Made by a program: the position numbers and the translations under genes
The notes under the pieces: generated by a model
The model's database searches: none
What the model was told of the DNA's origin: nothing
The model's input: only the letters and a program-made list of their open reading frames with translations
In this document: in pieces, positions 8,629 to 57,229 of the stretch
Layout: every line of letters starts with the position of its first letter
How positions within the stretch are numbered: position 1 is the first letter of the stretch
Origin: Porticoccaceae bacterium
GTDB lineage: Bacteria > Pseudomonadota > Gammaproteobacteria > Pseudomonadales > GM7GCV1
Assembly: GCA_018662305.1 (NCBI GenBank)
Contig: JABJGI010000148.1
Coordinates: 1 to 62,711 of the forward strand
DNA: 62,711 nucleotides
Direction of reading: 5' to 3'

Positions 8629-9648
8629 TTAGTCTGAAGCTCGCAAGAACATGCTTGCCGCTTCAGGGTCGCAGTTATAGGGCTCGGGAACTACGTGGGG
8701 GGAATAGATCAATTCGCGTGCGTGGCGAATAGGTGATGCCATGAATTCAGGGTCTTCGACAACAAATTCAAGGGCAATACGCTCTCCATTATCAATTAAC
8801 CTATAACGCTCCACGACGCGCTTCTGCGCGCCAGAGGGAACGCCAATTTGGTAAGGCGCACGGTGATCGGTGAAATTTGCCGTGTTGACCACTAGCGTGT
8901 CACCTTCCCAGTGACCGATCGAATGACCTGTCTGGAAACGCTCACTGATGTCGGGATGCCCACGACCATCCATATGGACGACCCGAACCTCGTCCCAATA
9001 TTCTGTTTGGATGAGGATAGTGTCTTCATCTTGAAAAACGAATTCGATAGGGAAGAGAGTGCTTGAAAGGAGCATTCCTGGTGTCGGTCGACCGACGCAG
9101 CCCGCCATAGGATTTTCGGCGGACAGAGGTTCAAATGCCTCCAGAGCAGCGCGTCCCTTTTCGGTCAGTTCGATGTGAGCCAGAATAAATGCGTCAAATT
9201 CGAACTCACCGTCCGGCAGGCTAGCGTGATCGGTCATCCACAATCCCTCTAGGGTTGTTGCAGCAGCCTGAACAGCGGGCGTATAAAAATTCACGCCTGA
9301 AATCATGCCCTGTTCTAAGTCGACTGAGTCGACCAGACCGTAAGGACGACCATTGACCGCGGCGTGCACTCTCGTCACCACCTGGTCTCCGACACTCAAG
9401 GTGTTCTCCGTCCATCCCATACGCGATGCGGAAGGGATTGAACCCAGTTGCATGGACCACTCCTCGGTCTCACCAGATTCCCCCATTGTCTCGAGCGTGA
9501 AATATGCGTGGGGATTACGCCAATAGAACCCAGTGATGCTTCCTTCAAAGCTTGTGAGGTTCTCCATATCCAAACCTGCATCGCTGTGATGTGCGCTTGC
9601 GGTTGCCGCAAAAAATAAAGCCAGGCTGCATAAGATTAGGGTTTTCAT
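8629..9648 (-). CDS. secreted HH-NPH family protein, long form (P1; DUF6152-like N-terminal module, recalled from memory)
   Basis: 339 aa. Signal peptide ending ATASA then HHSDAG. WRNPH. C-terminal GHSIGHWEGDTLVVNT, VVERY, EDPEF, two Cys in the mature part. AAGGAG upstream. Confidence 0.7.
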   Translation of the reverse strand: MKTLILCSLALFFAATASAHHSDAGLDMENLTSFEGSITGFYWRNPHAYFTLETMGESGETEEWSMQLGSIPSASRMGWTENTLSVGDQVVTRVHAAVNGRPYGLVDSVDLEQGMISGVNFYTPAVQAAATTLEGLWMTDHASLPDGEFEFDAFILAHIELTEKGRAALEAFEPLSAENPMAGCVGRPTPGMLLSSTLFPIEFVFQDEDTILIQTEYWDEVRVVHMDGRGHPDISERFQTGHSIGHWEGDTLVVNTANFTDHRAPYQIGVPSGAQKRVVERYRLIDNGERIALEFVVEDPEFMASPIRHARELIYSPHVVPEPYNCDPEAASMFLRASD

Positions 9649-9696
9649 CGTCGCTCTCCTTTAGTGAGGCTTCATCTCGCTAGATCAGAAAATCAC

Positions 9697-10617
9697 TTAT
9701 CCGAGTGAATGGAAGTGTTCAAACATCCTTTGTCGCATCGCTTCGTCGGGCAGACGTCCAAATCCTGAACTCATATTGTCTAGGGCGTAACGGGGGTTTC
9801 TGGTTTCCGACAGGGCGCATGTCACAGCGGGATGAGAGAGGATGTATTTGAGTGAAAACTGGGCCCAGGAAGTACAATCGAATTCCGCTGCCCAATCTGG
9901 AAGTTCGTGTCCAGCTACCGTGCCAAAGTAGGCGCCATTAACAAAGGGCCGGGTGGTTATCACGGCGACGCCGTTCGCCATTGCCGCAGGCAGAACACGG
10001 TTCGCCGCGTCAGGCTGAAGCATGGAATAGTTGACCTGCATAATATCCAATTCGCCGGCCTCGATAAGTTTCAGAGTTTGCTCTTCTTCTACCTGGTCAG
10101 TGGTATGAGTTATGCCAATGTAGCGCGTTCGTCCCGCATCCTTCCAATCTTTAAGAGTGGGCCAATGGTTGTCCATATCCATCAAGAGGTTGACCATTAA
10201 AAGGTCGGCGGGATTTTTACGCATCGAACGCTGCAATATCTCAAGGTGCTCAATTCCCTCCTGTTTTCCAGTCACCGTGATTTTTGCAGAGAGAAAGGTC
10301 TCGTCCAGCACGTCCATCTCTTCGAGAAGAGAGCCCAAAACCGGAATTCGGCCCCGCAGAATCGAAGGGTTATCTATCACTTTTCCACCCATCTCAAGCA
10401 TGGTCTGAACTACGGACATAGGTACTTCCTTGCCGCCCTCCGGAAGTTCCATAAACACCGGTGAGGAGCCGAGCCCGCACACAGGTAACTCCTCGCCAGT
10501 TTTGGGTATCGCCCGTCTGCGCATGCTCTCCTGAGCTAGTGCAGGAGTTGGCAGCGTTGCAGCAACTGTGGAGGCTGCGCTAGCTGAAAGAAATTGTCTT
10601 CGGTTAAAGCTATTCAT
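9697..10617 (-). CDS. Tat-signal aldo/keto-reductase-fold protein
   Basis: Start moved to the internal ATG (MNSFNRRQFLSASAASTVAATLPTPALA), 8 nt after the stop of the upstream gene. Twin-arginine motif RRQFL. AKR-like (beta/alpha)8 motifs FLSAKITV, YIGITHTT, ITTRPF, SETRNPRYALDNM. Confidence 0.65.
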   Translation of the reverse strand: MNSFNRRQFLSASAASTVAATLPTPALAQESMRRRAIPKTGEELPVCGLGSSPVFMELPEGGKEVPMSVVQTMLEMGGKVIDNPSILRGRIPVLGSLLEEMDVLDETFLSAKITVTGKQEGIEHLEILQRSMRKNPADLLMVNLLMDMDNHWPTLKDWKDAGRTRYIGITHTTDQVEEEQTLKLIEAGELDIMQVNYSMLQPDAANRVLPAAMANGVAVITTRPFVNGAYFGTVAGHELPDWAAEFDCTSWAQFSLKYILSHPAVTCALSETRNPRYALDNMSSGFGRLPDEAMRQRMFEHFHSLG

Positions 10618-10625
10618 CACAGATC

Positions 10626-11654
10626 CTATTGGCTGTCCGTGGCACATTGATAAGGTTTGATTTCTTCACCAGGAACCCAAGGGAAAACTTGTTCCTGTAC
10701 AACGGGCTCGGTAAAGGTATTGGGATCATTGATAGTTGCTTGCCAATGTAGGCCGGTTTCGTCTTCATTGACTGTCCATCGTTCCATAACATGCACTTCG
10801 TTAGACATCGGCGTGCCTCTGTCATCAAATGATTGAGCTTGAATATTGGTTGTTTCAACAACCAAAGTGTCGCCTTCCCAGTGTCCTACTGAATAGCCCT
10901 CGCGTGACGCCGGGAATTCAGCTGCGACGGAAATGTCTCCTCCCATGTGGATAGTGCGCACCGTATCCCATGATTCCAAGCGCAAGATGATGTCGTCGCC
11001 CTGCTGGCTAAATTCAATAGGCATGGAGACGTCCATAACAGCCGGCATGGCAGTGGGAATGCAGTTTAAAACAGGGTCTTTCGTAGGGTCGTAGGCTTCT
11101 TTCGACGCGGCTGCCGATTCAGTTAGAGGCAGTGGATCGTTGAGGTTTCGAACAAAGCCGCGAGACCAGGTGCGGAAAATGCCGTCCGCCTGAGCGATGT
11201 ATTCCTCAATATTTCGAGTTTCGATCTCCGGAACTGAGATGACCAGCTCCCGATCGGGCCAGCGACGTTCGGGAGGATTTCGAGGCCACAAGATAACCTC
11301 GAATTGATCTGCTACCAGGAGGTTGTAGGCGCGCATTTGATTACTGGCACGTCTGGCTGGTGGACCCCAAAAAGAAACAGTATCACCAAGGCTAAGTGTG
11401 TCCGGGCTTACACCCAGTCGTTCCAGCTGGTTTACAGCATTGCTTTCCACAATCCACTCTTCTTCCTGACCACTTTCGTTTGTGACTGTCAGAGTGAAAG
11501 ATGAATGCGGATTGCGCCAGGCGGCATCGGTTACCACTCCGGAGATCTCGACGCGCGAGTCGCCATCAAAAAATACCGCGCCGGAATGATGCGCATAAAG
11601 TTCGGGGGCAACTAGAAAGAGACCGGTAATGATGGCTGCTGAGATTAGTTTCAT
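10626..11654 (-). CDS. secreted HH-NPH family protein, long form (P2)
   Basis: 342 aa. ...PELYA then HHSGAV. WRNPH. GYSVGHWEGDTLVVET. Conserved Cys pair (VLNCIPT, YQCATD). Confidence 0.7.
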   Translation of the reverse strand: MKLISAAIITGLFLVAPELYAHHSGAVFFDGDSRVEISGVVTDAAWRNPHSSFTLTVTNESGQEEEWIVESNAVNQLERLGVSPDTLSLGDTVSFWGPPARRASNQMRAYNLLVADQFEVILWPRNPPERRWPDRELVISVPEIETRNIEEYIAQADGIFRTWSRGFVRNLNDPLPLTESAAASKEAYDPTKDPVLNCIPTAMPAVMDVSMPIEFSQQGDDIILRLESWDTVRTIHMGGDISVAAEFPASREGYSVGHWEGDTLVVETTNIQAQSFDDRGTPMSNEVHVMERWTVNEDETGLHWQATINDPNTFTEPVVQEQVFPWVPGEEIKPYQCATDSQ

Positions 11655-11687
11655 TGCGGATTTATCCTATGGCGTGTCTTGCTTGTC

Positions 11688-12707
11688 TTACTCCGAAAAA
11701 CGTTTGGCAGAATCGACTTCGCATTCGAAGGGCTGAACGGAGACGCCCGTTGCGGCGCGGTTCATGATCATGCTCCCAGTATAGAGATCTGTGAGATATA
11801 CCGGGTCTTCAATATCGTAATCGAGTGTAAGCACCTGCCCATCTTCGCTGACTGAATATCGCTCAACCACCCGTTTTTGCTCACTTGATGGGATATCTGC
11901 AGGAGGCCCCTTAGGTTGTGCTTCAGATGAAAGCCCCCAACGAGAAGCCGGATAAGCCTGACTTTCAATCACCATGACATCTCCTTCCCAACTGGCAGCA
12001 GCTACTCCCATATAACCGGTAGGATCGGCTGGGATAGGATCGGAATCAAAAGGAATGGTTCTGGTTATGCCGTAAGCCTCGTGCACAAAAATCACTTTTT
12101 CATCATCGATCTGAATATCCGTCAGATAGGGTGAAAGCTGGAGATCTGGAATGGAGAAGGGCTCACAGGTTGTCGCGGGCGAAAGGGTATGGTCGTAGTT
12201 CTCCGCAGCGATTTGTCCAGCTTCGTTCAGAGGTAAAGCCGGTTGAGGGTTCAGGAAGGGCAGGGGCGATGTCCACATGCCTTCGATGCCCATTCCGGCT
12301 TCTTCTTGGGCTGCTTGCGCGGACAGGTCAGGGTGCTCCCCGTAAACCGCACCAGATACTGCGGTCATGGCTCGACCGTAAACTAGGTTTCTTCCTTCTA
12401 CTCGGTTCGGCCACACCACTGCGGAGACATTGTCTCCCGGGCTAAAGGTACTCTGGGCAATACCCATACGCCGTAACATGATGCTCGAGGGGAGTTCGAC
12501 CTCCCAGACAAAGGTTTCACCGCGCTCATCTAGAGACTCGAGCGTGAAAAAAGAATGCGGATTGCGCAAATTAAAATCGGTAACAATACCTTCGATCTCC
12601 ATAGTCCTGCTGGGATCAAAATGCATGGCAAAAGCGTGATGAGATTGCGCTGTTGAGCAAAGCAAGCTGACTACGACAGCTAAGATCGAGAACAGAATGG
12701 CCTTCAT
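11688..12707 (-). CDS. secreted HH-NPH family protein, long form (P3)
   Basis: 339 aa. ...TAQS then HHAFAMHFD. LRNPH. SWEGDVMVIES. VVERY. Cys pair (TTCEPF, FECEVD). GGGGGAAG upstream. Confidence 0.7.
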   Translation of the reverse strand: MKAILFSILAVVVSLLCSTAQSHHAFAMHFDPSRTMEIEGIVTDFNLRNPHSFFTLESLDERGETFVWEVELPSSIMLRRMGIAQSTFSPGDNVSAVVWPNRVEGRNLVYGRAMTAVSGAVYGEHPDLSAQAAQEEAGMGIEGMWTSPLPFLNPQPALPLNEAGQIAAENYDHTLSPATTCEPFSIPDLQLSPYLTDIQIDDEKVIFVHEAYGITRTIPFDSDPIPADPTGYMGVAAASWEGDVMVIESQAYPASRWGLSSEAQPKGPPADIPSSEQKRVVERYSVSEDGQVLTLDYDIEDPVYLTDLYTGSMIMNRAATGVSVQPFECEVDSAKRFSE

Positions 12708-12972
12708 TTGCTTCCCCCAAGCATCATTGAACCAATTGGTAAGTGTGACTTGATCGCTAAAATTTGCAACCGAGCCTAATGCTGTTCCTTTCCCGAGAAA
12801 TCATGCGCCAAAGAGTCCCTTTGTGTCAGGATTTAGGGTCCAGGTCTTCAGAGTTTCTTAACAACCCTAATGCCGTCCTTATGCTAGTATTTTTGCGTGG
12901 CCTGCCGAAGTTGTTCTTCTGCAGGCGTATGGTTTAACCCTTCGGTATCCACTCCAACAGAGGAATAGTTAA

Positions 12973-13443
12973 TTGAAAAAACTGATATCCGCACTCACCT
13001 TTTTAACCCTCACTTTCTTCGGCTCGAATGCCTTTGCTCAGTACTCAGAGTACGGAGATCCCATTGGCACTGAGTTGGCCAAGGAAGCAGCAGCTGCGGC
13101 GCTAGCTGTTGTCGAGGAGAACGGATGGCAGATGGCTGTTTCGGTTGTCGATCCTTCCGGTAATCTTGTCTACTTTGAGAAAGTAGATGGCACTCAGCAT
13201 GCCTCCATTGAGATCTCAATGGCCAAAGCACAAGCTGCTGCCGGTTTTAGACGACCATCTTCAGTCTGGGTAAACGTTATTGCGAATGTCCCCTCCATTA
13301 CTACATTGCCTGGCGTTGTAGGCTCACCTGGTGGAGTTCCTATCGTAGTTGATGGCGCGGTCATCGGCGCTATCGGTTGTTCAGGAGCGACTGGCGAGCA
13401 AGACGGCATCGCCTGTGACGCGGGTGCTGCAGCAATAGACTAA
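12973..13443 (+). CDS. exported GlcG/HbpS-like (DUF336) protein
   Basis: 156 aa, TTG start. Signal peptide LTFFGSNAFA|Q. WQMAVSVVDPSGNLVYFEKVDG...ISMAKAQAAA...GGVPIVVDGAVIGAIGCSGATGEQD is typical of the GlcG/DUF336 family. Confidence 0.65.
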   Translation: MKKLISALTFLTLTFFGSNAFAQYSEYGDPIGTELAKEAAAAALAVVEENGWQMAVSVVDPSGNLVYFEKVDGTQHASIEISMAKAQAAAGFRRPSSVWVNVIANVPSITTLPGVVGSPGGVPIVVDGAVIGAIGCSGATGEQDGIACDAGAAAID

Positions 13444-13483
13444 GACACTAAATGAATATCTTGGGCCTGTGTGATGTCCAGGT

Positions 13484-13517
13484 AAAAAAAAGCCCTACCA
13501 AGTTGGTGGGGCTTTTT
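13484..13517. terminator. bidirectional intrinsic terminator between convergent genes
   Basis: A-run, stem GCCCTACCA / TGGTGGGGC (one G-U), 3-nt loop, then TTTTT. Confidence 0.6.
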
Positions 13518-13568
13518 ATTTAGGAGTTTTTATTTAGGGCTTCCCCCTAGGCTATTTTTTGAGCAAGG

Positions 13569-14528
13569 CTATTGAGGATTGCATTCGTAGGAATAAAGTT
13601 GCAGCTCTGGGGAATACACCAGAGTGGTTTGGCCCCTAAAGGGTTCTGAGAGATATTCCGGATCTTCAAACCAGATATCGACAATGGCCCGGGTGCGGTC
13701 TTCGCTAAGAGAATACTTTTCGATGACATGTTTGCCCGCGGTTGAGGGAAGGCCGAAAAACGCTCCGCCGATTCTGTGATCTGCCAGCAATCGAGTCTCG
13801 ACTACAAAGACATCATCTTCCCACCAACCAATGGAATGCCCCTGTGGGGTTCGTGCGCCATTTTCTGGATGAGTCCTTCCATCCATGTAGATAGTGCGCT
13901 CTACATCGAAAAATTCGTTTCTAATAAATGCAGCGTCCTCCGCGAATTCTATCTCTGTGAGGTAAAGAGCGTTTGAATTCAAGAAGGGAGGCGGCAAGGG
14001 TTCGCAGCGTAAGTTTTGCGTATGCGATGACTCCTCATATGCGCGCTCGGCTTGCGTACCCGCCTCTGTAAACTGAAAGCTGGTGTTGTTCAGGCTGAGC
14101 TCGGTTGAAGGCTCACCACGCCATACGCCCTCAATGCTTTCCGCAGCTGCAGTTACTTCAGGCGCTTCTTCCACCTGAATCCAGGTGTTTCCGTCTGCAG
14201 ACTGAATGCTGTTAAGAATAGCCTTTAGCTGACCGGTTTGAGCTGGGTGTGCTCTGACCTGAATCGCGTCACCCACCGCAAATAATTCTTCCGACCAGCC
14301 ACTTCTTCGCATTATGGGAGTCGATCCCGTCTCAATTTCCCATTGGCGGCGATCACCTTCTTCTTCCTGAACAAAAATGGTGACGTGGGGATTTCTGAAC
14401 TCGAATCCCACAACGGTTGCGTTAAAAGCGACAAGCTGACTGCGGTCATAAATAGCGTCGCTGTGGTGCGACCAACTAGCGCTTGCTATCAGACAACCGA
14501 GAACAATGAGATAGCTTTTCAGGAACAT
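13569..14528 (-). CDS. secreted HH-NPH family protein, long form (P4)
   Basis: 319 aa. ...SASWS then HHSDAI. FRNPH. GHSIGWWEDDVFVVET. VIEKY. Cys pair (LRCEPL, YECNPQ). Confidence 0.7.
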   Translation of the reverse strand: MFLKSYLIVLGCLIASASWSHHSDAIYDRSQLVAFNATVVGFEFRNPHVTIFVQEEEGDRRQWEIETGSTPIMRRSGWSEELFAVGDAIQVRAHPAQTGQLKAILNSIQSADGNTWIQVEEAPEVTAAAESIEGVWRGEPSTELSLNNTSFQFTEAGTQAERAYEESSHTQNLRCEPLPPPFLNSNALYLTEIEFAEDAAFIRNEFFDVERTIYMDGRTHPENGARTPQGHSIGWWEDDVFVVETRLLADHRIGGAFFGLPSTAGKHVIEKYSLSEDRTRAIVDIWFEDPEYLSEPFRGQTTLVYSPELQLYSYECNPQ

Positions 14529-14848: not shown

Positions 14849-15550
14849 ATGTATCCCTTGCGGTCGCTCTTGATTTTATTCTTCAGTTTTTCTGCTGCTC
14901 AGGCGTTTGCTCAATCCGAATGGGAAACCCCCAATGAGCAGGTTACCGGCGAAGAACTCTATGTCGCCTGTACTTTTTGCCATGGTCTGGAAGCCCAAGG
15001 GAATGATAGAAGAGACGGTCCGGCCCTTGCTGGACTGCAAGCTTGGTATATCGAAAAGCAGATCTACAATTTCAGAAATGGTTTGCGCGCGTACTCTGAA
15101 GAGGATATTCCAGGCAAGATAATGCATGGCAGCACGCCCATGATCAGAGACGAATTCACCATTAAGAGTATTTCCGAATACATAGCAGGACTTGAGCCCG
15201 GGCTACCTATGGCGAGAAACGCGGTAGGTGATAGGCCATTCGTTTGGGATTCTCCCTATGCGGGTTTAGATGAATCGATCGTTGGCGATGCCGCTGCTGG
15301 TGCCTCAACCTACAACGGTATCTGCATGATCTGCCATGGAGCTGAGGGTAGCGGCAATGAAGCGCTCGGCGCAGGCAGCTTAAAGTACCTCTCCGGTATG
15401 TATATGGAGCGCCAGCTGATGTATTTCAGAGATGGAATACGGGGAGCGCATCCGGAGGATGTAACTGGGCAGCAGATGGCGGCAATGGCCAAAACCCTAA
15501 CAACAGATCAAGCAATCGCCGACGTGGTTGCCTATATATTGGAGCTTTGA
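14849..15550 (+). CDS. periplasmic diheme c-type cytochrome (cytochrome c4-like), copy 1
   Basis: 233 aa. Signal peptide. Two CxxCH sites (CTFCHG, CMICHG), each followed by a W/M-Y-x-E-K/R-Q-x-x-x-F-R-x-G-x-R motif and a Met-rich distal segment. Confidence 0.8.
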   Translation: MYPLRSLLILFFSFSAAQAFAQSEWETPNEQVTGEELYVACTFCHGLEAQGNDRRDGPALAGLQAWYIEKQIYNFRNGLRAYSEEDIPGKIMHGSTPMIRDEFTIKSISEYIAGLEPGLPMARNAVGDRPFVWDSPYAGLDESIVGDAAAGASTYNGICMICHGAEGSGNEALGAGSLKYLSGMYMERQLMYFRDGIRGAHPEDVTGQQMAAMAKTLTTDQAIADVVAYILEL

Positions 15551-15588
15551 TTGTGAGACAGAATAGACAGTTCCGGAGTATCGAGACT

Positions 15589-16215
15589 ATGAAGAGTATA
15601 CGAACCTTGGCAAGCGCTCTTTTTGTTTTATGCGCACTAAACCTTAACGCCCAAACACCGGCAGAGGTGAAACTGGTTGCAGCTCTGGAAGAAGATAGAG
15701 GCTGGTGTCTTGATCTGCGTGGCGCACAGCAAAACGCAGCGCCCATAGGTGGCGTGCATGGACACACCTGTTATACCTATCAGGGCAATGGTGTGGCGCT
15801 TGATCAGGGGTTTTTTGTAGAGAACGTTCAGGAGAACAATGAGTTTCGGATGTCGGGATTCCCAGATCTCTGCATGACGCTCTACGAGCCAATAGCTGGT
15901 TCCTTTATCTCCATCGAAACCTGTGATGATCGTGCTTCACAAGACTTTGTATTGGATGAAAGTGGAAAGATTTATTCCGAGACGCATCCCGAATTGTGTA
16001 TGACTTTGGACGATTTTGTTCTACCCGGTGGCGGTGGTCGACCCTTGCATATCATGCGGGATGTCAGCTTCGAAGAATGCGGCAGCGTGGACAGTGTTCT
16101 ACAGACTTGGGAACTGCGGTCCGAGTGGAACGGCCTTGAAGAAACAACGCTTCCGCGACCTTACGAAGTTGGAGCACCTCCTCCAGGTGCGCCCGGAGGA
16201 ATGGGGGCTGGTTAG
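15589..16215 (+). CDS. secreted ricin-B/beta-trefoil-like protein, copy 1
   Basis: Start moved to MKSIRTLASALFVLCALNLNA. Three-fold internal pattern WCLDL / LCMTL / LCMTL with Q-x-F/W motifs (QDFVLDESGKI, QTWELR). Gly/Met-rich tail PGGMGAG. Confidence 0.5.
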   Translation: MKSIRTLASALFVLCALNLNAQTPAEVKLVAALEEDRGWCLDLRGAQQNAAPIGGVHGHTCYTYQGNGVALDQGFFVENVQENNEFRMSGFPDLCMTLYEPIAGSFISIETCDDRASQDFVLDESGKIYSETHPELCMTLDDFVLPGGGGRPLHIMRDVSFEECGSVDSVLQTWELRSEWNGLEETTLPRPYEVGAPPPGAPGGMGAG

Positions 16216-16224
16216 CCCCCTCAT

Positions 16225-17268
16225 TTAATCCGTCAGAAAGTGATACATCCCTAAAACATTCTCATTTAGCCAGTTGTATCCAGCCCAATGCGCAAAGTCT
16301 GGAATCTCGATACTGGTGCGCATTTCTTCCAGTGATTGCCCATCATCAATAGCCTGAGACACGGCGTCTTCCAATTGTTGAAAATAACCGCGCAGCTCAG
16401 CGATGCTATCTGCATTTCCAAGTGGGCCGTGGCCAGTCGTGACGTATTCGTAGTCTCTGGCAATCACTTCGGTTGATTCGATCGCCGCCATCCATTCTGG
16501 ATACATGCCATTTTCAAAATCCATCTCTCGGAAGGGGAGGCGTCCGAAGGTGATGTAGTCCACCAGGAACATTACGCTATCCTCGGGAAAGCTTATCCGG
16601 CTCACATCATCGGAATGATTCATCTCTCCAACCCAGGTGGCAGTGACTTGCTTTCCGCCCAGCTCGATTTTTAGATGCTCGGTATAGGTGATATTGGGAG
16701 GCTGTACAAATGATAAGGGGCCTCGAACAATTTCTGCTCCGTTAAGAAGGCGATCTCCGTTTTCGTCGAACGCATCGAACTGGAGTTGGGAGATACTGTC
16801 GCCCGCTTCACTTTGGTCAACAAAGCCGTCTCCGTTAGAGTCCAGCGCAGCAACTGGTGCGTATTGCCCAATTACATTGGATAGAGTTGTGCTTTCTGGG
16901 GGCATTGCCAAGTTCTTTAGCATATTGGCGTGGCCCACATATTGAGCGGTGTCTGCAAAGACAGCTCCGCCCGACGCGTGATCCCAGTGGTTATGGCTAT
17001 AAACGACATATCTTACCGGCAGGCCGAATCTGGTATCGAGCTCGGTTTTTAACCATTCAGCGAATTCGGCATTAAGAGGGTCACCCAAAATAATTCCCTC
17101 GGAAGTCACCATAAAGGCGGTATTGTGATTGTTGTTCTGAGCACGATACACATCGCCTGCAATGTGGCTGATCACGCGTTGTGGTGCATTCTGAGCGCTG
17201 GCCGTATTTACCAGAAAAAATAGGCACAGGCCGACAAAGATCAAAATTGAGTGGCACAGGTTTTTCAT
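16225..17268 (-). CDS. exported metallo-beta-lactamase-fold hydrolase with an inserted EF-hand pair
   Basis: Start moved to MKNLCHSILIFVGLCLFFLVNTASA (GAGGAAGGGGGA upstream). HNHWDH (HxHxDH). Insert DSNGDGFVDQSE and DENGDRLLNGAE. Distal TGHGP. Confidence 0.75.
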   Translation of the reverse strand: MKNLCHSILIFVGLCLFFLVNTASAQNAPQRVISHIAGDVYRAQNNNHNTAFMVTSEGIILGDPLNAEFAEWLKTELDTRFGLPVRYVVYSHNHWDHASGGAVFADTAQYVGHANMLKNLAMPPESTTLSNVIGQYAPVAALDSNGDGFVDQSEAGDSISQLQFDAFDENGDRLLNGAEIVRGPLSFVQPPNITYTEHLKIELGGKQVTATWVGEMNHSDDVSRISFPEDSVMFLVDYITFGRLPFREMDFENGMYPEWMAAIESTEVIARDYEYVTTGHGPLGNADSIAELRGYFQQLEDAVSQAIDDGQSLEEMRTSIEIPDFAHWAGYNWLNENVLGMYHFLTD

Positions 17269-17359
17269 TGGATTCCCCCTTCCTCGAATCGATATCAATC
17301 AGGGTAGCATCAGACAATCTGAAATATCCTATTTTGGTCTCATCCCTTAACGATTCTTA

Positions 17360-23168: not shown

Positions 23169-24230
23169 ATGTTCGAACAATTCAACACCAAAAGGAGTGC
23201 ATTTGTAGCACTTCTGTCAGCTCTTTTGTTTTACCCGCAGGCAGTTCTGTCTCACCACGGGGCAAACAACAACCCTGAAATGTATCTGGCAGAGAATCTG
23301 GTTCGCATAGAAGGCAGTGTCAGCAGAGTTTTTTGGCGCAACCCCCATCCAAGAATTATGGTCACTTCAGTTGACGAGTCCGGCGAAGAAATGGAGTGGG
23401 AGCTTGAAATGGGCTCCAATGTAAATGGCTACAACGCTATGGGTATTAGCGCCGATTTTGTAAAAGTCGGTGATCGAGTTCGAGCGGCAGGCGTGGTCTC
23501 ACGTCGTGATCCAAGCTCGATGGGACTACAGAATTTACTTCTCCCCAATGGTGAAGAACTCGTTACCCGAAATAACAGTCCAACGCTTTGGTCGGATGAC
23601 CGTATCTCCTCTGAACGGCGCGGTCCTACAGCAGAGCAAATTCGTGAAGCCGAAGCTACTGCCGATGGGCTGTTTCGTACTTGGGGCCGGCGCACTGGAC
23701 CTCGTCCGAGCCCAGAGGAATATTCACACCTCTTGACGGAGGAGGGCAGAGCGATGCAGGAAGCCTACGACTTCGCATTTGACAATCCTGAGTTGGACTG
23801 CCAATCAGGTCTAGCCTCAAACATGTTTGATCCAACCCCGATGCAAATCATTAATAACGGGGACCACCTTGTGATTTACACTGAGGAATACGACCTTATG
23901 CGTTCTGTATACATGACCGACGACCGTCCGGAACCTGAATACTCGAATCTCGGCTATTCTGTGGGCCGTATGGAGGGTGAGGTACTGGTGGTAGAAACCA
24001 GTCACATCGATTGGCCAAACTTTGATCCATACGGTACGCCACAATCCAGGGAAATGACCTATGTGGAGCGCTTCTGGGTCGCGGAGGATGACAGCCGACT
24101 GCAGTACCGTATCGAAGCAACGGATCCTGTCTATTTAACCGACACGATCATGCTAGAGAGAGAATGGATGTGGCAGCCGGGTGTGCAAATGGTGGAGTTT
24201 AACTGTGCCGCTGAAGTAGCTGCCGACTAA
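23169..24230 (+). CDS. secreted HH-NPH family protein, long form (P5)
   Basis: 353 aa. ...QAVLS then HHGANN. WRNPH. GYSVGRMEGEVLVVET. YVERF. Cys pair (LDCQSG, FNCAAE). GGGGGAG upstream. Confidence 0.7.
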   Translation: MFEQFNTKRSAFVALLSALLFYPQAVLSHHGANNNPEMYLAENLVRIEGSVSRVFWRNPHPRIMVTSVDESGEEMEWELEMGSNVNGYNAMGISADFVKVGDRVRAAGVVSRRDPSSMGLQNLLLPNGEELVTRNNSPTLWSDDRISSERRGPTAEQIREAEATADGLFRTWGRRTGPRPSPEEYSHLLTEEGRAMQEAYDFAFDNPELDCQSGLASNMFDPTPMQIINNGDHLVIYTEEYDLMRSVYMTDDRPEPEYSNLGYSVGRMEGEVLVVETSHIDWPNFDPYGTPQSREMTYVERFWVAEDDSRLQYRIEATDPVYLTDTIMLEREWMWQPGVQMVEFNCAAEVAAD

Positions 24231-26442: not shown

Positions 26443-28065
26443 ATGTTTTCTATCCAAAGGCAAAACCTGACTGTTCTGCTTTCTCTTTCTTTGTGGGCTG
26501 GCGTTGTTGCGGCCCAGCAGAACCCGCTGCTGCTAACCAACGGAAAAATTCTTACGCTCGATTCGGAAAACTCCATTGCTTCCAGCATGCTCCTATACCG
26601 GGGTCAGATTGAAGCCGTCGATGATCTATCCCATGGCCTGATTCGGGACGCAGAAGTTTTGGATCTTGAAGGGCGGACTGTAATTCCCGGTATGTATGAC
26701 TCCCATATGCACTTTATCCGAGGCACCTTGCGACCTGGCTACGATATGCGTCGAGTTGAAGAAGCCAGTTCCATAGCGGAGTTGCTCGAAGAAATTGAGG
26801 ACCACTCTTCGCAGGTGCCGGCAGGGGAGTTTATTACCGCGATAGGCGGTTGGGATCCGATTCAGTTTCTTGGTGAAAACCGGTTTCCCACTTTGGATGA
26901 GCTCGACTCTGTGGCAACCGAACACCCTTTCTATATGCATCTGCGTGCAAACGGTCCAGCGGTTACCAACTCTCTAGGCAAAACCATTCTTGAGAACGCC
27001 GGTATCGAGGTCGCAGAAGATGGAATGATTACCACTGGCGAACAGGCTGTTGCTGCTTTCAATTATCTTAAGAGCCAACAAACAGATGAAGACAGAGTCC
27101 GAGGCGCTCGTGATTTTATGCATTACGCTAATAGCCTTGGTTTGACCGCTGTCCGGGACCATGGTGGTACACCAATAGCCGGCGCTCAGCTTTTTGAACC
27201 CTATAACGACTACGACACCATGCTTGACCTCTGGCGCAACGATTTGATGAGTATGAGAGTGCGGCTTGGATTAATGAATTCGGATGAGATGGTAGGTGAT
27301 GGCACCGGAAACTCGGGCGTCGAACAGAGATTGCGGAATAATTTCATGGGCCTGGGTGACGACATGCTTAAAGTTTCCGGGTTGGGGGAGAACAACGTCA
27401 GAAACGCAACAGGTGAAGCTTTCGTCAATATGGCTAAATTGGCCGCTCAAGCTGGTTGGAGTTTGGAGCAGCACTCTTCTCAGCTGGCTCAAAACGAATT
27501 TCATATTGCAGCCTTTGAGGCGGCAAACGAAGTTGCCTCAATAGAAGACCTTCGTTGGACGCTTACCCATGTGCAGCAAATTACTCCTGATATTGCACAG
27601 CGCCTCTTAAATTTGGGCGGCGGCGTAACCGTTCAGGTGCATCGGTATTTGAATAGAGGGAATGTCACCAATAATCAGGGTGGCCCACCTCTGCGAATGC
27701 TGACAGATATGGGAGTTCCCATCGGTGGTGGAACGGACAGCACAAATGCACAACCCATGAATCCCTGGTACTCCATCTATTACATGGTAACGGGCAAAAA
27801 TGTTGGCGGATACGAAGTAAACGCTGGGCAGCAACTTACGCGTATGGAAGCTCTACGTACCTACACCATGGGTAGCGCCTGGGTTACGAAAGATGATGAG
27901 AAGTTTGGTTCTCTCGAGGTGGGTAAGCTTGCCGACCTAGTGGTGCTAAATGAAGATTATCTGGAAGTCTCGGATAGCGAGATTCGAGACTTGAGTTCAG
28001 TTCTGACTCTGCTCAATGGGGAGATTGTTTATACTGACCCGAGCGTTAACCTGATGGCGCATTGA
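26443..28065 (+). CDS. exported amidohydrolase-superfamily metallo-hydrolase (Amidohydro_3/YtcJ-like)
   Basis: 540 aa. Signal peptide. GMYDSHMHF (HxH), GGGTDS, KLADLVVLNEDY C-terminal motif. Confidence 0.7.
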   Translation: MFSIQRQNLTVLLSLSLWAGVVAAQQNPLLLTNGKILTLDSENSIASSMLLYRGQIEAVDDLSHGLIRDAEVLDLEGRTVIPGMYDSHMHFIRGTLRPGYDMRRVEEASSIAELLEEIEDHSSQVPAGEFITAIGGWDPIQFLGENRFPTLDELDSVATEHPFYMHLRANGPAVTNSLGKTILENAGIEVAEDGMITTGEQAVAAFNYLKSQQTDEDRVRGARDFMHYANSLGLTAVRDHGGTPIAGAQLFEPYNDYDTMLDLWRNDLMSMRVRLGLMNSDEMVGDGTGNSGVEQRLRNNFMGLGDDMLKVSGLGENNVRNATGEAFVNMAKLAAQAGWSLEQHSSQLAQNEFHIAAFEAANEVASIEDLRWTLTHVQQITPDIAQRLLNLGGGVTVQVHRYLNRGNVTNNQGGPPLRMLTDMGVPIGGGTDSTNAQPMNPWYSIYYMVTGKNVGGYEVNAGQQLTRMEALRTYTMGSAWVTKDDEKFGSLEVGKLADLVVLNEDYLEVSDSEIRDLSSVLTLLNGEIVYTDPSVNLMAH

Positions 28066-28100: not shown

Positions 28101-28826
28101 ATGAAGCGGTTTAAGGTTCTACTCTTTGTCGTTGCTAATCTCTGCGTCTCTGCGAGCATTGCTCAAATGTATCCTGCCGACGGCAATGTCGGTGTGCCGG
28201 GAGAGGAGATGTTCCAGGCCTGCGGATTTTGCCACGGCAATCAGGGGCAGGGCCGTCAACGTCTGGACGCGCCGCCCATTGCGGGTCTGCAAGCATGGTA
28301 CGTGGAACGCCAGCTCAACAATTTCGACAACGGGGTTCGCGGCCAACATTCAGAAGACCTTCCCGGTGCACAGATGGATATTATTTCCGTGATGTTGCGA
28401 AATGAGGCAACAGTCGAGAATGTTGCAGCTTATGTGGAAACTCTGGAACCGGGAGGCCCGCGCATGACTATTGGACCTCCCGGGCAAGAGCGCCCCGAGC
28501 CCTTGGAACGGCCTTTTACCTGGGAGTCCGAATATGCTTCTCTCGATGTGCCAGAGCCAGGCAATGCCGAACGTGGCGGGAATTTATATAACGCCGTCTG
28601 CCTCGCCTGCCATGGCGCAACGGGGCTTGGCTTGGAGACTCTGGGCGCGCCTAACTTAACCGTATTGCCCGGTTGGTATATGGAGCGGCAGATGGAGTAT
28701 TTCCGCGACGGTATTCGCGGGGCCGACACTCGGGACAGCTATGGTCAACAGATGGCGGCTTTCGCACAATTTCTCGCAGACGATCAGGCAATCGCTGATG
28801 TGGTTGCTTACATCGAAACTCTATAG
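28101..28826 (+). CDS. periplasmic diheme c-type cytochrome (cytochrome c4-like), copy 2
   Basis: 241 aa. CGFCHG and CLACHG. Same motif layout as 14849-15550, with roughly half the positions identical by eye and an identical DQAIADVVAYI tail. Confidence 0.8.
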   Translation: MKRFKVLLFVVANLCVSASIAQMYPADGNVGVPGEEMFQACGFCHGNQGQGRQRLDAPPIAGLQAWYVERQLNNFDNGVRGQHSEDLPGAQMDIISVMLRNEATVENVAAYVETLEPGGPRMTIGPPGQERPEPLERPFTWESEYASLDVPEPGNAERGGNLYNAVCLACHGATGLGLETLGAPNLTVLPGWYMERQMEYFRDGIRGADTRDSYGQQMAAFAQFLADDQAIADVVAYIETL

Positions 28827-28852: not shown

Positions 28853-29434
28853 ATGAAACCTGTACTTAGATCAACCGCCTTTCTAATGGCATTTTTCTTT
28901 TCACACTTAAGTTCAGCAGCGACTCTCGCAGAGCTCAAATTAATAGCACCCTTGGAAGAAGAGCGGGGCTGGTGTGTCGATCTTTTTGCCCACCTAACCG
29001 GGGGACTGCCTATTGGCGGTTTCCAGGGGCACAATTGCTTTTCCTATTTCAACGAAACTCCGACGGAGGATCAGGGCTTTGATGCCGAGATGTTTCTGCA
29101 GGAGGGAGTGATCCGTCTAGCCTATTTTGATATTTGTATGACGGTGCATGAGCCCAGAGCGGGTTCCTTTGTCGCCTCGGAGCCTTGTACCGGAGAAGAT
29201 GTTCAGAAGTTTGATATCCAGGAGAGTGGGGAGATTGTTTCGGTCTCTTCTCCTAGCCTTTGCCTAACAGCGGGAACGAGGTTGGTGACTGGCGGCGGTG
29301 GTGATCCAATTCATCTAATCCGTGGGCTAACATTTGAGGAGTGCGATGCGGCAATTGCGGAGAGACAGCAATGGGAACTGCGCTATCAGTGGGAAGGGCC
29401 AGAAGAGGCCACCTTGCCTAGACCCTATAATTAG
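28853..29434 (+). CDS. secreted ricin-B/beta-trefoil-like protein, copy 2
   Basis: Start moved to the ATG (MKPVLRS) after GGAAG. WCVDL / ICMTV / LCLTA, QKFDIQESGEI, QQWELR. Shares the ...TLPRPY C-terminus with copy 1. Confidence 0.5.
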   Translation: MKPVLRSTAFLMAFFFSHLSSAATLAELKLIAPLEEERGWCVDLFAHLTGGLPIGGFQGHNCFSYFNETPTEDQGFDAEMFLQEGVIRLAYFDICMTVHEPRAGSFVASEPCTGEDVQKFDIQESGEIVSVSSPSLCLTAGTRLVTGGGGDPIHLIRGLTFEECDAAIAERQQWELRYQWEGPEEATLPRPYN

Positions 29435-29474: not shown

Positions 29475-29505
29475 AAAAAAAAGAGGCCAGTTGGCCTCTT
29501 TTTTT
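29475..29505. terminator. bidirectional intrinsic terminator
   Basis: A-run, GAGGCC / GGCCTC stem, then T7. Lies between convergent genes. Confidence 0.7.
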
Positions 29506-54820: not shown

Positions 54821-55933
54821 ATGAATAAATCACTTTTTGCATCCGCTGTATTGGCGCTGGTTTTAGGAGCGGCGCCTGCGGCAATAGCTCATCACGGGCC
54901 TGGTCAATTTCGAGGTGGTGAAGTCACCGTGACTGGTGTCGTAACTAATATCCGCTTTGTGAATCCGCACGCCTATATTTATATGGATGTGGTTGGAGAA
55001 GACGGCGAAACCGAGGCCTGGCGATTTGAAATGCAGGCAGGATCGCTCTTGCGACGAGCGGGCTGGGACGAGAGCATGTTCCCAGAGGGCACTGAAATCA
55101 CCATTACCGGTGCAGCGGGAACCAGAGAAAGAACAGCGGCTCTGTATTCAACCGGCGTATTTGCGGATGGTACGGAGCTTGGTCGTTCAACCCAGCGTCG
55201 AGAAGTAGTCGATGATGTCAGCGCCATGGAAGTCGAAAGCAGGTTGGCTAGCGGCACATTAGACTTAAATGGCACTTGGGCCGCGCCGCAGAGATATTTT
55301 GATCCAACGGAAGCGGCGCGTCGCGCCAACGCAGCAGCGGGTGGCGGCATGGGTGCGCCCACTGGTAGGGGCGGTGGCGGCGGTGGTCTGCCTAATGGTG
55401 TTTCTGGTCTAACCGAAGCGGGCGAGGCGGCTGTTGAGCGTTATGCAGCTGCGGGTGGTGGTAACCCTCGCCACAGATGTGAAGCGGTCAATATCTTCCA
55501 CGACTGGACCTTTGATCGTCACGTAAACGAAATTATTCAGACTGAAGATACTATCGTTATGAAGATGGGGCTTATGGATATTGTTCGTACGATCCACCTG
55601 GATATGGATGAACACCCTGCCAACATCGTACCTTCCAAAGGCGGTCACTCAATTGGGCGCTTGGACGGAGCCACGCTGCATGTCGACACCATTGGTTTTA
55701 CCGGCGACGGCTATCTTTCCGCTAGTCTGTTGCACAGTGACCAGTTCCATGTGACCGAGACCTTCACCTATAACCCGGAAGACCACAGTCTGACTCGCGT
55801 ATATTCCGCGGTTGATCCAGTTAACTTTACTGGAACCTACAGTGGCGAGGACGTTGTTTACATATCTAACACTCCTTTTGAAGACTACGCCTGTGTTGAA
55901 TTGATGGACGATTTCATCGAACCAATTGAGTAG
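54821..55933 (+). CDS. secreted HH-NPH family protein, long form with Gly-rich insert (P6)
   Basis: 370 aa. ...PAAIA then HHGPGQ. FVNPH. GHSIGRLDGATLHVDT. Cys pair (HRCEAV, YACVEL). Insert AAAGGGMGAPTGRGGGGGG. Confidence 0.7.
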   Translation: MNKSLFASAVLALVLGAAPAAIAHHGPGQFRGGEVTVTGVVTNIRFVNPHAYIYMDVVGEDGETEAWRFEMQAGSLLRRAGWDESMFPEGTEITITGAAGTRERTAALYSTGVFADGTELGRSTQRREVVDDVSAMEVESRLASGTLDLNGTWAAPQRYFDPTEAARRANAAAGGGMGAPTGRGGGGGGLPNGVSGLTEAGEAAVERYAAAGGGNPRHRCEAVNIFHDWTFDRHVNEIIQTEDTIVMKMGLMDIVRTIHLDMDEHPANIVPSKGGHSIGRLDGATLHVDTIGFTGDGYLSASLLHSDQFHVTETFTYNPEDHSLTRVYSAVDPVNFTGTYSGEDVVYISNTPFEDYACVELMDDFIEPIE

Positions 55934-55950
55934 TACATTGCTCATATAGA

Positions 55951-55976
55951 AAAAGGCAGCTGAGGCTGCTTTTTTG
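55951..55976. terminator. short hairpin with flanking A/T runs between convergent genes
   Basis: GCAGC / GCTGC stem, A-run before and T6 after. The stem is short. Confidence 0.35.
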
Positions 55977-56000
55977 TTCTCAAAGAATATTAGGTGGAGA

Positions 56001-57056
56001 CTATTGCTCAGTAATCGATCCTGCGCAGTCGTAGGGTTGAATCTCCTGGCCTGGAACATACTGCCACCACTTCTGCGCAACGTTTGACGTTCGTTGCATC
56101 AGTGGGTCAATTTCTACTCTAGTGTAGGCAAGTTGATTGCGATCATGGCTAAGGTTAAAGGTCTCAACTGCCTGTACAAAATCGAGGCCATCAGTACCAC
56201 CCTCGCGATATTGGATAGTTTCAACAACCAGTGTATCTCCTAGCATTCGGCCTCGAGAATAGCCGAGATGATCCCTTGGGATCTCATTCGGAATAGCCTT
56301 GTTCGGATCCATATAGACGGTGCGAACAGTATCCAAAAACTCGAATTGAATTTCGATGGTATCGCCATTATTAACGAGAGCCATGGGGTAGGGTTCACCG
56401 ATAACTGACAGCGCAGGTCTAGCCGAACAGTCGTGTCTGTCTGGCCTTCCGCCGAGCCCAGCTGCTTGCCGTGCAGCTTGATATTCCAGAGCATATTCAG
56501 TTGGATCACCGCCCCTTGCTCGACCAGCTCCATGGCTTCCCTCGGCACCATAGACAATGTGCCAACTGCCAAAGATCGAAGTCGGGCGCTCATCAAGATT
56601 ATCTTCAACAACGCCACCATGGAGTGCCGCAGTATCACCAATTAGACCAGAGGCTTCATCTGTCCAGCGACGCCCTGCCGTTCTCGACATAACCACTTCA
56701 GTGTTGTCTGCCAGCAGTAAGTGATTTACAAACATTTCTGGTCTGCCCTGAAGAGAGGGTAGACCAGCGGCCTTCACCTGATCGCCAATTTTAATTACAT
56801 CTCTGGATACCCCCATACGAGTCAGTCTGGCGACTGCGTTACTTTCAATGGTCCAGACCGTTTCGTTCGCCGTATCTTGATCCACGGTAATCTGGAACTG
56901 GACATGTGGATTGCGCCAAAGAATTTTTGATACGACGCCCTCAATTTCTACGTCGCCATCGGCATCAAAGATAGCGGCCCAAGTGTGATGGGCGTTTACC
57001 TGACTTGAGGCGAGTACTATGAAACATAGGACGGTTAACTTTCTTAGAATTGACAT
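56001..57056 (-). CDS. secreted HH-NPH family protein, long form (P7)
   Basis: Start moved to MSILRKLTVLCFIVLASSQVNA (GGGGA upstream) then HHTWAA. WRNPH. GYSRGRMLGDTLVVET. Cys pair (HDCSAR, YDCAGS). Confidence 0.7.
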   Translation of the reverse strand: MSILRKLTVLCFIVLASSQVNAHHTWAAIFDADGDVEIEGVVSKILWRNPHVQFQITVDQDTANETVWTIESNAVARLTRMGVSRDVIKIGDQVKAAGLPSLQGRPEMFVNHLLLADNTEVVMSRTAGRRWTDEASGLIGDTAALHGGVVEDNLDERPTSIFGSWHIVYGAEGSHGAGRARGGDPTEYALEYQAARQAAGLGGRPDRHDCSARPALSVIGEPYPMALVNNGDTIEIQFEFLDTVRTVYMDPNKAIPNEIPRDHLGYSRGRMLGDTLVVETIQYREGGTDGLDFVQAVETFNLSHDRNQLAYTRVEIDPLMQRTSNVAQKWWQYVPGQEIQPYDCAGSITEQ

Positions 57057-57229
57057 TTTTATCCCCATAATTCGCTGATATTTATTAGATACATTATTCT
57101 TGGCTTTCCTTCGAATGAAGGCGAGTCCTTTGTATTGTGTCTAAAATATGGCCAAAGTGTGCCTAATTCGAAAACGGATTGGAAATATTTCTTTCGAAAA
57201 GCCATACAAATTTACTTTAATTAGGGGTA

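Follow-up and report, generated by a model that had tools for sequence, protein, structure and literature searches.

Paired genes for a c4-type dihaem cytochrome and an R-type beta-trefoil protein as candidate subunits of a targeted electron shuttle in DUF6152-rich genomes

Contig JABJGI010000148.1 of a Porticoccaceae bacterium (assembly GCA_018662305.1), analysed over its 62,711 nucleotides and referred to below as the window, carries two copies, pair A and pair B, of an arrangement in which the gene of an exported c4-type dihaem cytochrome c is directly followed by that of a small exported protein with the R-type beta-trefoil fold. Here, we propose that the two genes encode halves of one extracytoplasmic unit, a targeted two-subunit electron shuttle which in some organisms is produced as a single chain, and we regard this proposal as about as likely as not. 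An earlier note on this DNA, made from its letters alone, had already viewed the pair as a conserved functional unit of an electron carrier and a ligand-binding-type trefoil, and adjacency, co-divergence, joint loss and fusions of the two genes speak for it, while the binding of a ligand is something we infer.

In pair A, the cytochrome gene (14849..15550, + strand) codes for 233 amino acids (aa) with two CxxCH motifs and two Pfam Cytochrom_C domains (60 bits), and the trefoil gene (15589..16215, + strand) for 208 aa counted from ATG 15589 (Pfam Ricin_B_lectin, 29.3 bits). Pair B consists of a cytochrome of 241 aa (28101..28826, + strand), likewise with two Cytochrom_C domains and with CcoP and cytochrome c4 as its matches in PDB, and a trefoil of 193 aa from ATG 28853 (28853..29434, + strand) assigned by AlphaFold2 (AF2) modelling, Foldseek and a profile match to R-type lectins. 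Full-length identity between the cytochromes is 47% (E 2e-76), and both have the C-terminal DQAIADVVAYI, so that their description as two-CxxCH proteins with the same tail and about half of the positions identical, given before by eye, holds for the confirmed open reading frames (ORFs). The trefoils are 43% identical (E 6e-56), and translation together with alignment reproduced the features noticed in them earlier, namely the repeats WC(L/V)DL, CMT(L/V) and LC(M/L)T, three Q-x-F/W motifs and the C-terminal TLPRPY. Both trefoil starts are the revised ones of the earlier note, and they are supported by homologues starting at the same Met (e.g., P0066 for pair A) and by ribosome-binding sites: Shine-Dalgarno-like GGAG lies upstream of ATG 15589 and GGAAG upstream of ATG 28853. 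Counted in this way, the trefoils begin 38 and 26 nt after the cytochrome stop codons, in line with the earlier note, in which secreted proteins of ~195-210 aa had been seen 39 and 26 nt downstream. Type-I signal peptides are found on both the cytochrome and the trefoil, and export via Sec is predicted.

A trefoil pattern scan of 185,579 species genomes gave 28 loci, to which protein look-ups added three. Upstream DNA is included in 30 of the loci, and every one of them has the gene of a pair-type cytochrome (E 1e-63 to 1e-113) directly 5′ of the trefoil on the same strand; in 3 of 3 look-ups begun from distant cytochromes (47-57% identity) a trefoil follows. The carriers are labelled as Porticoccaceae, Cellvibrionales, Arenicellaceae, Ca. 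Rariloculaceae, Woeseiaceae and one “Rhodospirillaceae” metagenome-assembled genome (MAG). Co-occurrence outside the source genome, named in the earlier note as a way to check the pairing, thus turned out to be adjacency in every testable locus. In comparisons at the family level, presence and absence also concern both genes at once: genome G134 contains three adjacent pairs, and neither gene was found in the same-genus G044 or the same-family G092 and G172. Distance matrices calculated for the cytochromes and trefoils of 34 distinct pairs are correlated with r = 0.91, the value reached by 0 of 2000 label permutations. The nearest relatives of both genes of pair A belong to loci L046 and L045 (83-86% identity for the cytochrome), those of pair B to L018, L017 and L020, and those of a further copy on contig C75 of the same genome to L041 and L042. 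Since the two genes of a copy share their nearest relatives, it was as a unit that the pair split into no fewer than four old types, in agreement with the previously suggested old duplication retained by both genes; two or three of these types coexist in most carrier genomes.

Separate reading frames are also replaced by fused ones. In an exhaustive profile search of 1.84 billion representative proteins, four clusters of cytochrome-first fusions, 426-449 aa long, were revealed (P0223 from L048, P0224 from L049, P0274 and P0322), with linkers containing no second signal peptide; two of them, P0223 on L048 and P0224 on L049, were confirmed on contigs. Further fusions of the P0223 type were absent from the results of a word-index search, P0223 being a singleton. 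The opposite order is represented in G134 (L053:1044-2267), where a protein of 407 aa starts with the trefoil and continues through a Gly/Ala/Met linker into the dihaem cytochrome, so that the evidence from fusions comprises P0223, the group of P0224, P0274 and P0322, and this reverse-order protein. For P0223, the AF2 model (predicted local distance difference test, pLDDT, 89.7; predicted template modelling score, pTM, 0.87 over 442 aa) suggests a fixed arrangement of the domains.

The cytochromes resemble soluble electron carriers. Residues C41, C44, H45, M92, C167, C170, H171 and M218 (pair B numbering) are invariant in 25 pair-type cytochromes, M92 and M218 being, by their sequence position, the putative distal haem ligands, and outside the CxxCH motifs there is no conserved Cys, Lys or open-site residue. 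Because both halves appear to have His/Met ligation, the protein is best considered as a high-potential electron carrier and not as a catalyst. Its sequence neighbours in PDB are CcoP and cytochrome c4, c4 proper being matched at E 1e-9 to 1e-6, and the fold comparison, made on the cytochrome part of the fusion homologue P0223 (52% identical to the pair B cytochrome) and not on the window protein, gave TM 0.70-0.78 with 8smr_K, 1etp, 6q2u and 1h1o. A peculiarity of the pair-type proteins is an inter-domain insert of ~20-30 aa following the pattern R-P-F-x-W-x-S-x-Y, in which R137, W141, S143, Y145 and A146 are conserved and R137 and W141 invariant; it is present in the cytochrome-first fusions as well and absent from the reverse, trefoil-first fusion and from a homologue fused to COX2. 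The latter, the dihaem domain of COX2 in L046:7295-8656, is 34% identical to the pair cytochrome over both haem domains (E 6e-37). Many pair cytochromes bear the JGI label “cytochrome c oxidase subunit 2”, which is explained by their being free-standing paralogues of this domain.

The identification of the partner as a beta-trefoil has two grounds, profiles and a model. With the Ricin_B_lectin (PF00652) cut-off at 29 bits, the pair A trefoil scores 29.3 and the pair B trefoil, just below, 27.5; most trefoil homologues have a precomputed PF00652 match, and a family profile built from 35 members finds R-type lectin chains and CBM13 (a family of carbohydrate-binding modules, CBMs) in PDB at E 4e-9 to 1e-6. 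The AF2 model of the pair B trefoil, made with the family alignment, reaches pLDDT 87.1 and pTM 0.82, and Foldseek places the CBM13 xylan-binding domain 1knm/1knl on top of its matches (TM 0.75-0.77, probability 1.0), with over 100 other R-type trefoil domains ranking behind it. Judged by this model, the small protein is a true R-type/CBM13 beta-trefoil, and the ricin-B-like reading of the earlier note, together with the modelling that it had advised, comes out well. Across 35 sequences, little or no variation is seen at Q74-G-F76, Q118-K-F120 and Q172-Q-W174 (numbered as in the pair B trefoil), and the six Cys that never vary would allow one disulfide in each lobe. Asp after the first Cys is retained in the alpha lobe alone (C41-V-D43), together with Q58 and invariant H60, the beta and gamma lobes having Thr at the Asp position; Asp43, Gln58 and His60 may therefore form a single candidate ligand site.

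Which residues go along with the cytochrome was assessed by comparing 34 cytochrome-linked trefoils with 70 others for which no linkage is known (65 proteins of the representative library and 5 paralogues of the source genome, a few of which may be linked after all). Both sets keep C41, D43, H60, C62, D73, Q74 and the framework of Cys and Q-x-W, and W40, L44, G55, G59, G75, T97, L98, P101, F106, E110 and F161 are conserved in the cytochrome-linked trefoils only. The shared alpha-lobe positions may accordingly be read as a family-wide ligand site, and the linked-only residues of the beta lobe as the likely place of contact with the cytochrome. Related trefoils occur in fusions with an esterase (C34:5654-7165 of the source genome; P0315), a metallo-beta-lactamase-fold (MBL) protein (P0257), YHYH and DUF3500, on account of which the trefoil can be said to behave as a portable binding module. 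Trefoil matches in L050 and L051 are intact ORFs of paralogues without a linked cytochrome. As a separate feature, the pair A trefoil ends with a Gly/Ala/Met/Pro-rich tail (16165-16212, PPPGAPGGMGAG), and similar low-complexity stretches rich in Gly, Ala and Met (and Pro) occur in the tail of a sulfatase (L017:2205-4058) and in the linker of the reverse fusion (L053:1044-2267); they may serve as a flexible spacer, a Met-rich metal site or a sorting tag.

The window contig is C97 of a genome (G000) of 2.24 Mb in 170 contigs, 97% complete. The earlier note had counted two pairs, and both are real, but in the whole genome the total amounts to at least four (two on C97, C75:2-1296 and C99:10172-11664), with a fifth copy probably split over the ends of contigs C146 and C56. 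The C99 trefoil carries a lipoprotein signal, as do P0087, P0089 and P0095, these copies having long linkers. Six trefoil paralogues in the genome have no cytochrome (among them C34:5654-7165, C76:1088-2655, C16:26254-28205, C129:13881-15316 and C95:4769-5443), and a separate ordinary cytochrome c4 is encoded at C128:13828-14472, as are, elsewhere, CcmE and two haem-copper oxidases. Four contig ends (C75:2, C99:11664, C146:3 and C56:2) interrupt cytochrome or trefoil genes of the pair families, and given these breaks pair loci may be variable between strains or otherwise hard to assemble in the metagenome. Regarding the surroundings of the solitary trefoils, the one on C34, fused to an alpha/beta-hydrolase (esterase), stands beside three DUF6152 genes and an amidohydrolase, the one on C76 overlaps the stop of a DUF6152 gene, and the one on C129 comes after a DUF1499-like membrane protein, a DUF1499-trefoil pairing which also adjoins the fusion in L048.

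A working scheme of the proposed shuttle can be drawn from these observations. Sec would carry both proteins out of the cytoplasm and Ccm would attach the haems. Subsequently, the trefoil would bind the cytochrome, the likely contact being formed by the cytochrome insert and the beta-lobe residues T97, L98, P101, F106 and E110, and would function as an aiming or anchoring subunit taking the haems to a glycan-type ligand, to a partner enzyme or, in the lipoprotein variants, to the membrane. The respiratory chain could then exchange electrons with exported enzymes whose genes surround the pair, and the hugely expanded family of secreted His-His DUF6152 proteins would be the likeliest of these partners. 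Both the identity of the redox partner and the direction of electron flow are conjectural, with a slight lean towards electrons being handed to a terminal oxidase, as the cytochrome is paralogous to the electron-entry dihaem domain of oxidase subunit II.

A role of the trefoil inside the complex only, as a structural or regulatory subunit of the cytochrome which has no external ligand and stabilises it, tunes its potential or gates its docking to the oxidase, is possible though rather unlikely. It would account for the residue set conserved exclusively in cytochrome-linked trefoils, for an insert limited to pair-type cytochromes, for the high pTM of the fusion model and for the disappearance of the sugar-site Asp from two of the three lobes. 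On the other hand, Asp43, His60, Asp73 and Gln74 are equally well kept in cytochrome-free paralogues, and so ought to serve something besides contact with the cytochrome; moreover, the module is fused to esterases, MBL, YHYH and DUF3500, as binding modules usually are, and its lipoprotein copies have long linkers. Still less probable is that the pair is itself an enzyme, the trefoil binding a small substrate directly oxidised or reduced by one of the haems in the manner of a TsdA/TsdB-type thiosulfate dehydrogenase. TsdBA (5lo9) does appear among the fold matches of the cytochrome part, and the neighbouring hydrolases (sulfatase, amidohydrolase) could supply a substrate, but the distal Met is invariant at both haem sites (M92, M218), nothing like a conserved Cys, Lys or open-site residue is seen beyond CxxCH, and in fold the protein comes closest to c4 cytochromes, which are plain electron carriers; a catalytic TsdA-like reading is disfavoured by these Met ligands.

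Hardly any weight is left for the view that a respiratory cytochrome and an unrelated secreted lectin are merely co-transcribed and do separate jobs with no coupling, which is strongly disfavoured. Each protein does have a signal peptide of its own, and each family exists alone (c4 at C128:13828-14472; trefoils on C16, C129, C76 and C95), but such a view has to face adjacency across several bacterial families (30/30 and 3/3 loci), joint absence from close relatives, a correlation of 0.91 between the two distance matrices, and independent fusions in both domain orders.

The expansion of DUF6152 is the most conspicuous property of the genomes harbouring the pair. In the source genome, 55 DUF6152-like genes make up ~2.5% of all genes, and all 17 other carrier genomes tested (including G202-G217) gave from 10 to at least 150 matches, 104 of them in one genome of 1.8 Mb; in some of these small marine genomes the copies range from 50 to more than 150, and a separate tally for other pair-carrying genomes runs from 42 to at least 150. 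For comparison, more than 10 copies were found in 4 of 201 genomes sampled from the order and any copy in 7 of 400 genomes sampled from the class, the pair-type trefoil being present in 2 and 1 of them, respectively. As all tested carriers are rich in DUF6152 and the background samples are mostly poor in it or lack it, the pair looks confined to DUF6152-rich genomes. What was confirmed here for this family is its assignment and copy number, “His-His” and “secreted” being taken over with the label. By analogy with a lytic polysaccharide monooxygenase (LPMO) plus Cbp2D, the cytochrome-trefoil unit might be the dedicated redox partner of secreted His-His DUF6152 proteins in a new periplasmic or extracellular oxidative system, the lectin-like subunit bringing the c4-type cytochrome to substrate-bound DUF6152 metalloproteins; we put this forward as a speculative extension that we would sooner doubt than accept. 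Within the window, DUF6152 genes are met, for example, in the segments 8629-14528, 23169-24230 and 54821-57068.

Several observations weigh against the proposed shuttle and its link with DUF6152. Expansions of DUF6152 without the pair exist in G044 (21 copies) and G106 (at least 23), and in the source genome local proximity is not significant, 2 of 4 pairs lying within 5 kb of a DUF6152 gene versus 15% of random windows. The carrier lineages are few, and co-occurrence at the genome level may partly reflect shared ecology. Neighbouring genes differ from locus to locus, and the proteins could be either periplasmic or secreted beyond the cell. A physical complex and its interface are presumed, the contribution from modelling being the pTM of one fusion, and the long flexible linker of the reverse-order fusion implies that a rigid interface is not required. 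Finally, ligand binding by the trefoil is itself putative, with His in place of the aromatic stacking residue typical of R-type sites.

Cytochrome c4 is a periplasmic carrier feeding haem-copper oxidases. With its representatives (Pseudomonas stutzeri 1ETP; P. aeruginosa c4 in the bc1-cbb3 supercomplex 8SMR; Acidithiobacillus ferrooxidans 1H1O) the pair cytochrome shares two class-I domains each having CxxCH and a distal Met, the helix motif “Y-x-x-x-Q-x-x-x-F-x-x-G-x-R” in each half and a best fold match at TM 0.71-0.78; it differs from them in the inter-domain insert, in being always encoded with or fused to a trefoil and in low sequence similarity. Likeness to the COX2 dihaem domain of L046 is expressed in twin “AWY-x-x-RQL-x-x-F-x-x-G-x-RG” motifs and the “DQAI-x-DVVAYI” ending, whereas the pair cytochrome is a protein of its own that lacks CuA and a membrane portion, contains the insert and is linked to the trefoil. 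The trefoil, in turn, is similar to CBM13/R-type domains such as that of Streptomyces lividans xylanase 10A (1KNL/1KNM) in having three lobes with Q-x-W/F and a Cys pair per lobe, and in relatives that serve as appended modules on hydrolases. Unlike CBM13, it forms a secreted protein by itself, which consists of a single domain and is dedicated to a cytochrome; Asp occurs in the alpha lobe only, the stacking aromatic is replaced by His, and a Gly-rich loop (GGG) is added, as well as a conserved tail at the C-terminus.

Neither a pairing of a c4-type cytochrome with an R-type trefoil nor any mention of DUF6152 was found in the library of papers searched. The novelty claimed in the earlier note is hence preserved as far as this particular pairing is concerned, yet it has a partial precedent in the CBM-attached cytochromes Cbp2D and TERTU_3803 (PMC8981238, PMC10916295). 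Cbp2D/Cbp2E of Cellvibrio japonicus and TERTU_3803/2913 of Teredinibacter turnerae are secreted proteins in which CBMs are joined to c-type cytochrome domains X183/X132 (PMC8981238, PMC10916295); the CjX183 domain reduces LPMO, a histidine-brace copper enzyme (PMC8981238), which is the basis of the analogy between the pair and His-His DUF6152, and the X183 domains of T. turnerae failed to activate the LPMO tested (PMC10916295). Cbp2D-type proteins are the closest functional precedent: in Gammaproteobacteria that are likewise marine or saprophytic and related to the carriers, they too combine, on the outer side of the cytoplasmic membrane, a c-type cytochrome with a module of the carbohydrate-binding type. 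They differ in module type (CBM2/CBM10 instead of CBM13-like), in monohaem X183/X132 instead of a dihaem c4 type and in gene organisation, cytochrome and trefoil being separate genes in the window, as they usually are, and fused in some relatives. Membership of the pair in the Cbp2D/X183 family was rejected: similarity to the CjX183 structure 7B21 is a generic class-I match (E 0.004), far weaker than that to c4/CcoP, the module is of another type, and a search of the source genome for AA10 LPMO (PF03067) gave no match.

According to the usual view, soluble c-type cytochromes reach their partners by diffusing and dock with them transiently. If the proposed shuttle is real, a cytochrome aimed by a lectin-fold subunit of its own would represent a different solution, and one retained through at least four old duplications and fused twice independently. 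The idea of a redox protein combined with a carbohydrate-binding module would then extend beyond secreted cellulolytic systems to respiratory carriers of the c4 type. The pair also gives a first functional handle on DUF6152-rich genomes, being the only redox component tied to them so far, and, as it is found only there, a redox role of DUF6152 becomes directly testable with two small expressible proteins.

As to the genomic context, pair A is divergent from a DUF6152 gene (13569..14528, - strand; Pfam E 4.5e-19) across a spacer of 320 bp, and its trefoil is convergent with the gene of an MBL protein (16225..17298, - strand; Pfam Lactamase_B E 2.6e-7). Upstream of pair B, an exported Amidohydro_3 enzyme (26443..28065, + strand; Pfam E 2.3e-69) is encoded on the same strand 35 nt before the cytochrome, and a further DUF6152 gene (23169..24230, + strand; Pfam E 4e-12) lies 3.9 kb away; the operon ends with a terminator-like hairpin (29476..29505, strand unassigned) composed of a 13-bp stem and a T run 42 nt past the trefoil stop. 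The metallo-hydrolase and DUF6152 (“HH-NPH”) neighbours pointed out before are therefore real by Pfam and do recur, but they form no fixed part of the unit. Across 38 loci, DUF6152 was met within 5 kb of the pair in 18, Amidohydro_3 in 9, a Tat-exported aldo-keto reductase in 9, Sulfatase in 7 and FAD_binding_4 in 6, with RidA, cupin and MBL also recurrent beside the pair, and the typical order is [amidohydrolase]-[sulfatase]-cytochrome-trefoil-[amidohydrolase]-[DUF6152]. MBL is located 3′ of the trefoil in L016, and its fusion with a trefoil is known as P0257. In L046, the pair precedes COX2/COX1/COX3 by 1.6 kb.

Some particular arrangements may be added. A gene for an HbpS-like/GlcG (DUF336) protein (12973-13443, Pfam HbpS-like E 1.8e-30) is situated among DUF6152 genes just upstream of pair A; HbpS-type proteins bind haem, and this gene may belong to the same redox context. 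Locus L025 (JAHEKF010000002.1, equal to G208), labelled Rhodospirillaceae, has a pair 59% identical to that of the window and at least 150 DUF6152 matches, so that either the bin bears a wrong label or the complete toolkit was acquired by horizontal transfer. In L048, the genes preceding the fusion code for a membrane protein of the cytochrome b561 type and for a DUF1499 protein, and beside the fusion P0224 (L049:1049-5018) there are a second stand-alone trefoil, an intradiol-dioxygenase-like gene and a FAD protein of 755 aa with ferredoxin. Where pair-A-type loci occur in other genomes, a cyclic nucleotide (cNMP)-binding protein of 159 aa is encoded 3′ of the trefoil (L046:6523-10702, L045:6467-6946), after which, in L046, comes the COX2/COX1/COX3 operon whose COX2 carries the homologous dihaem domain.

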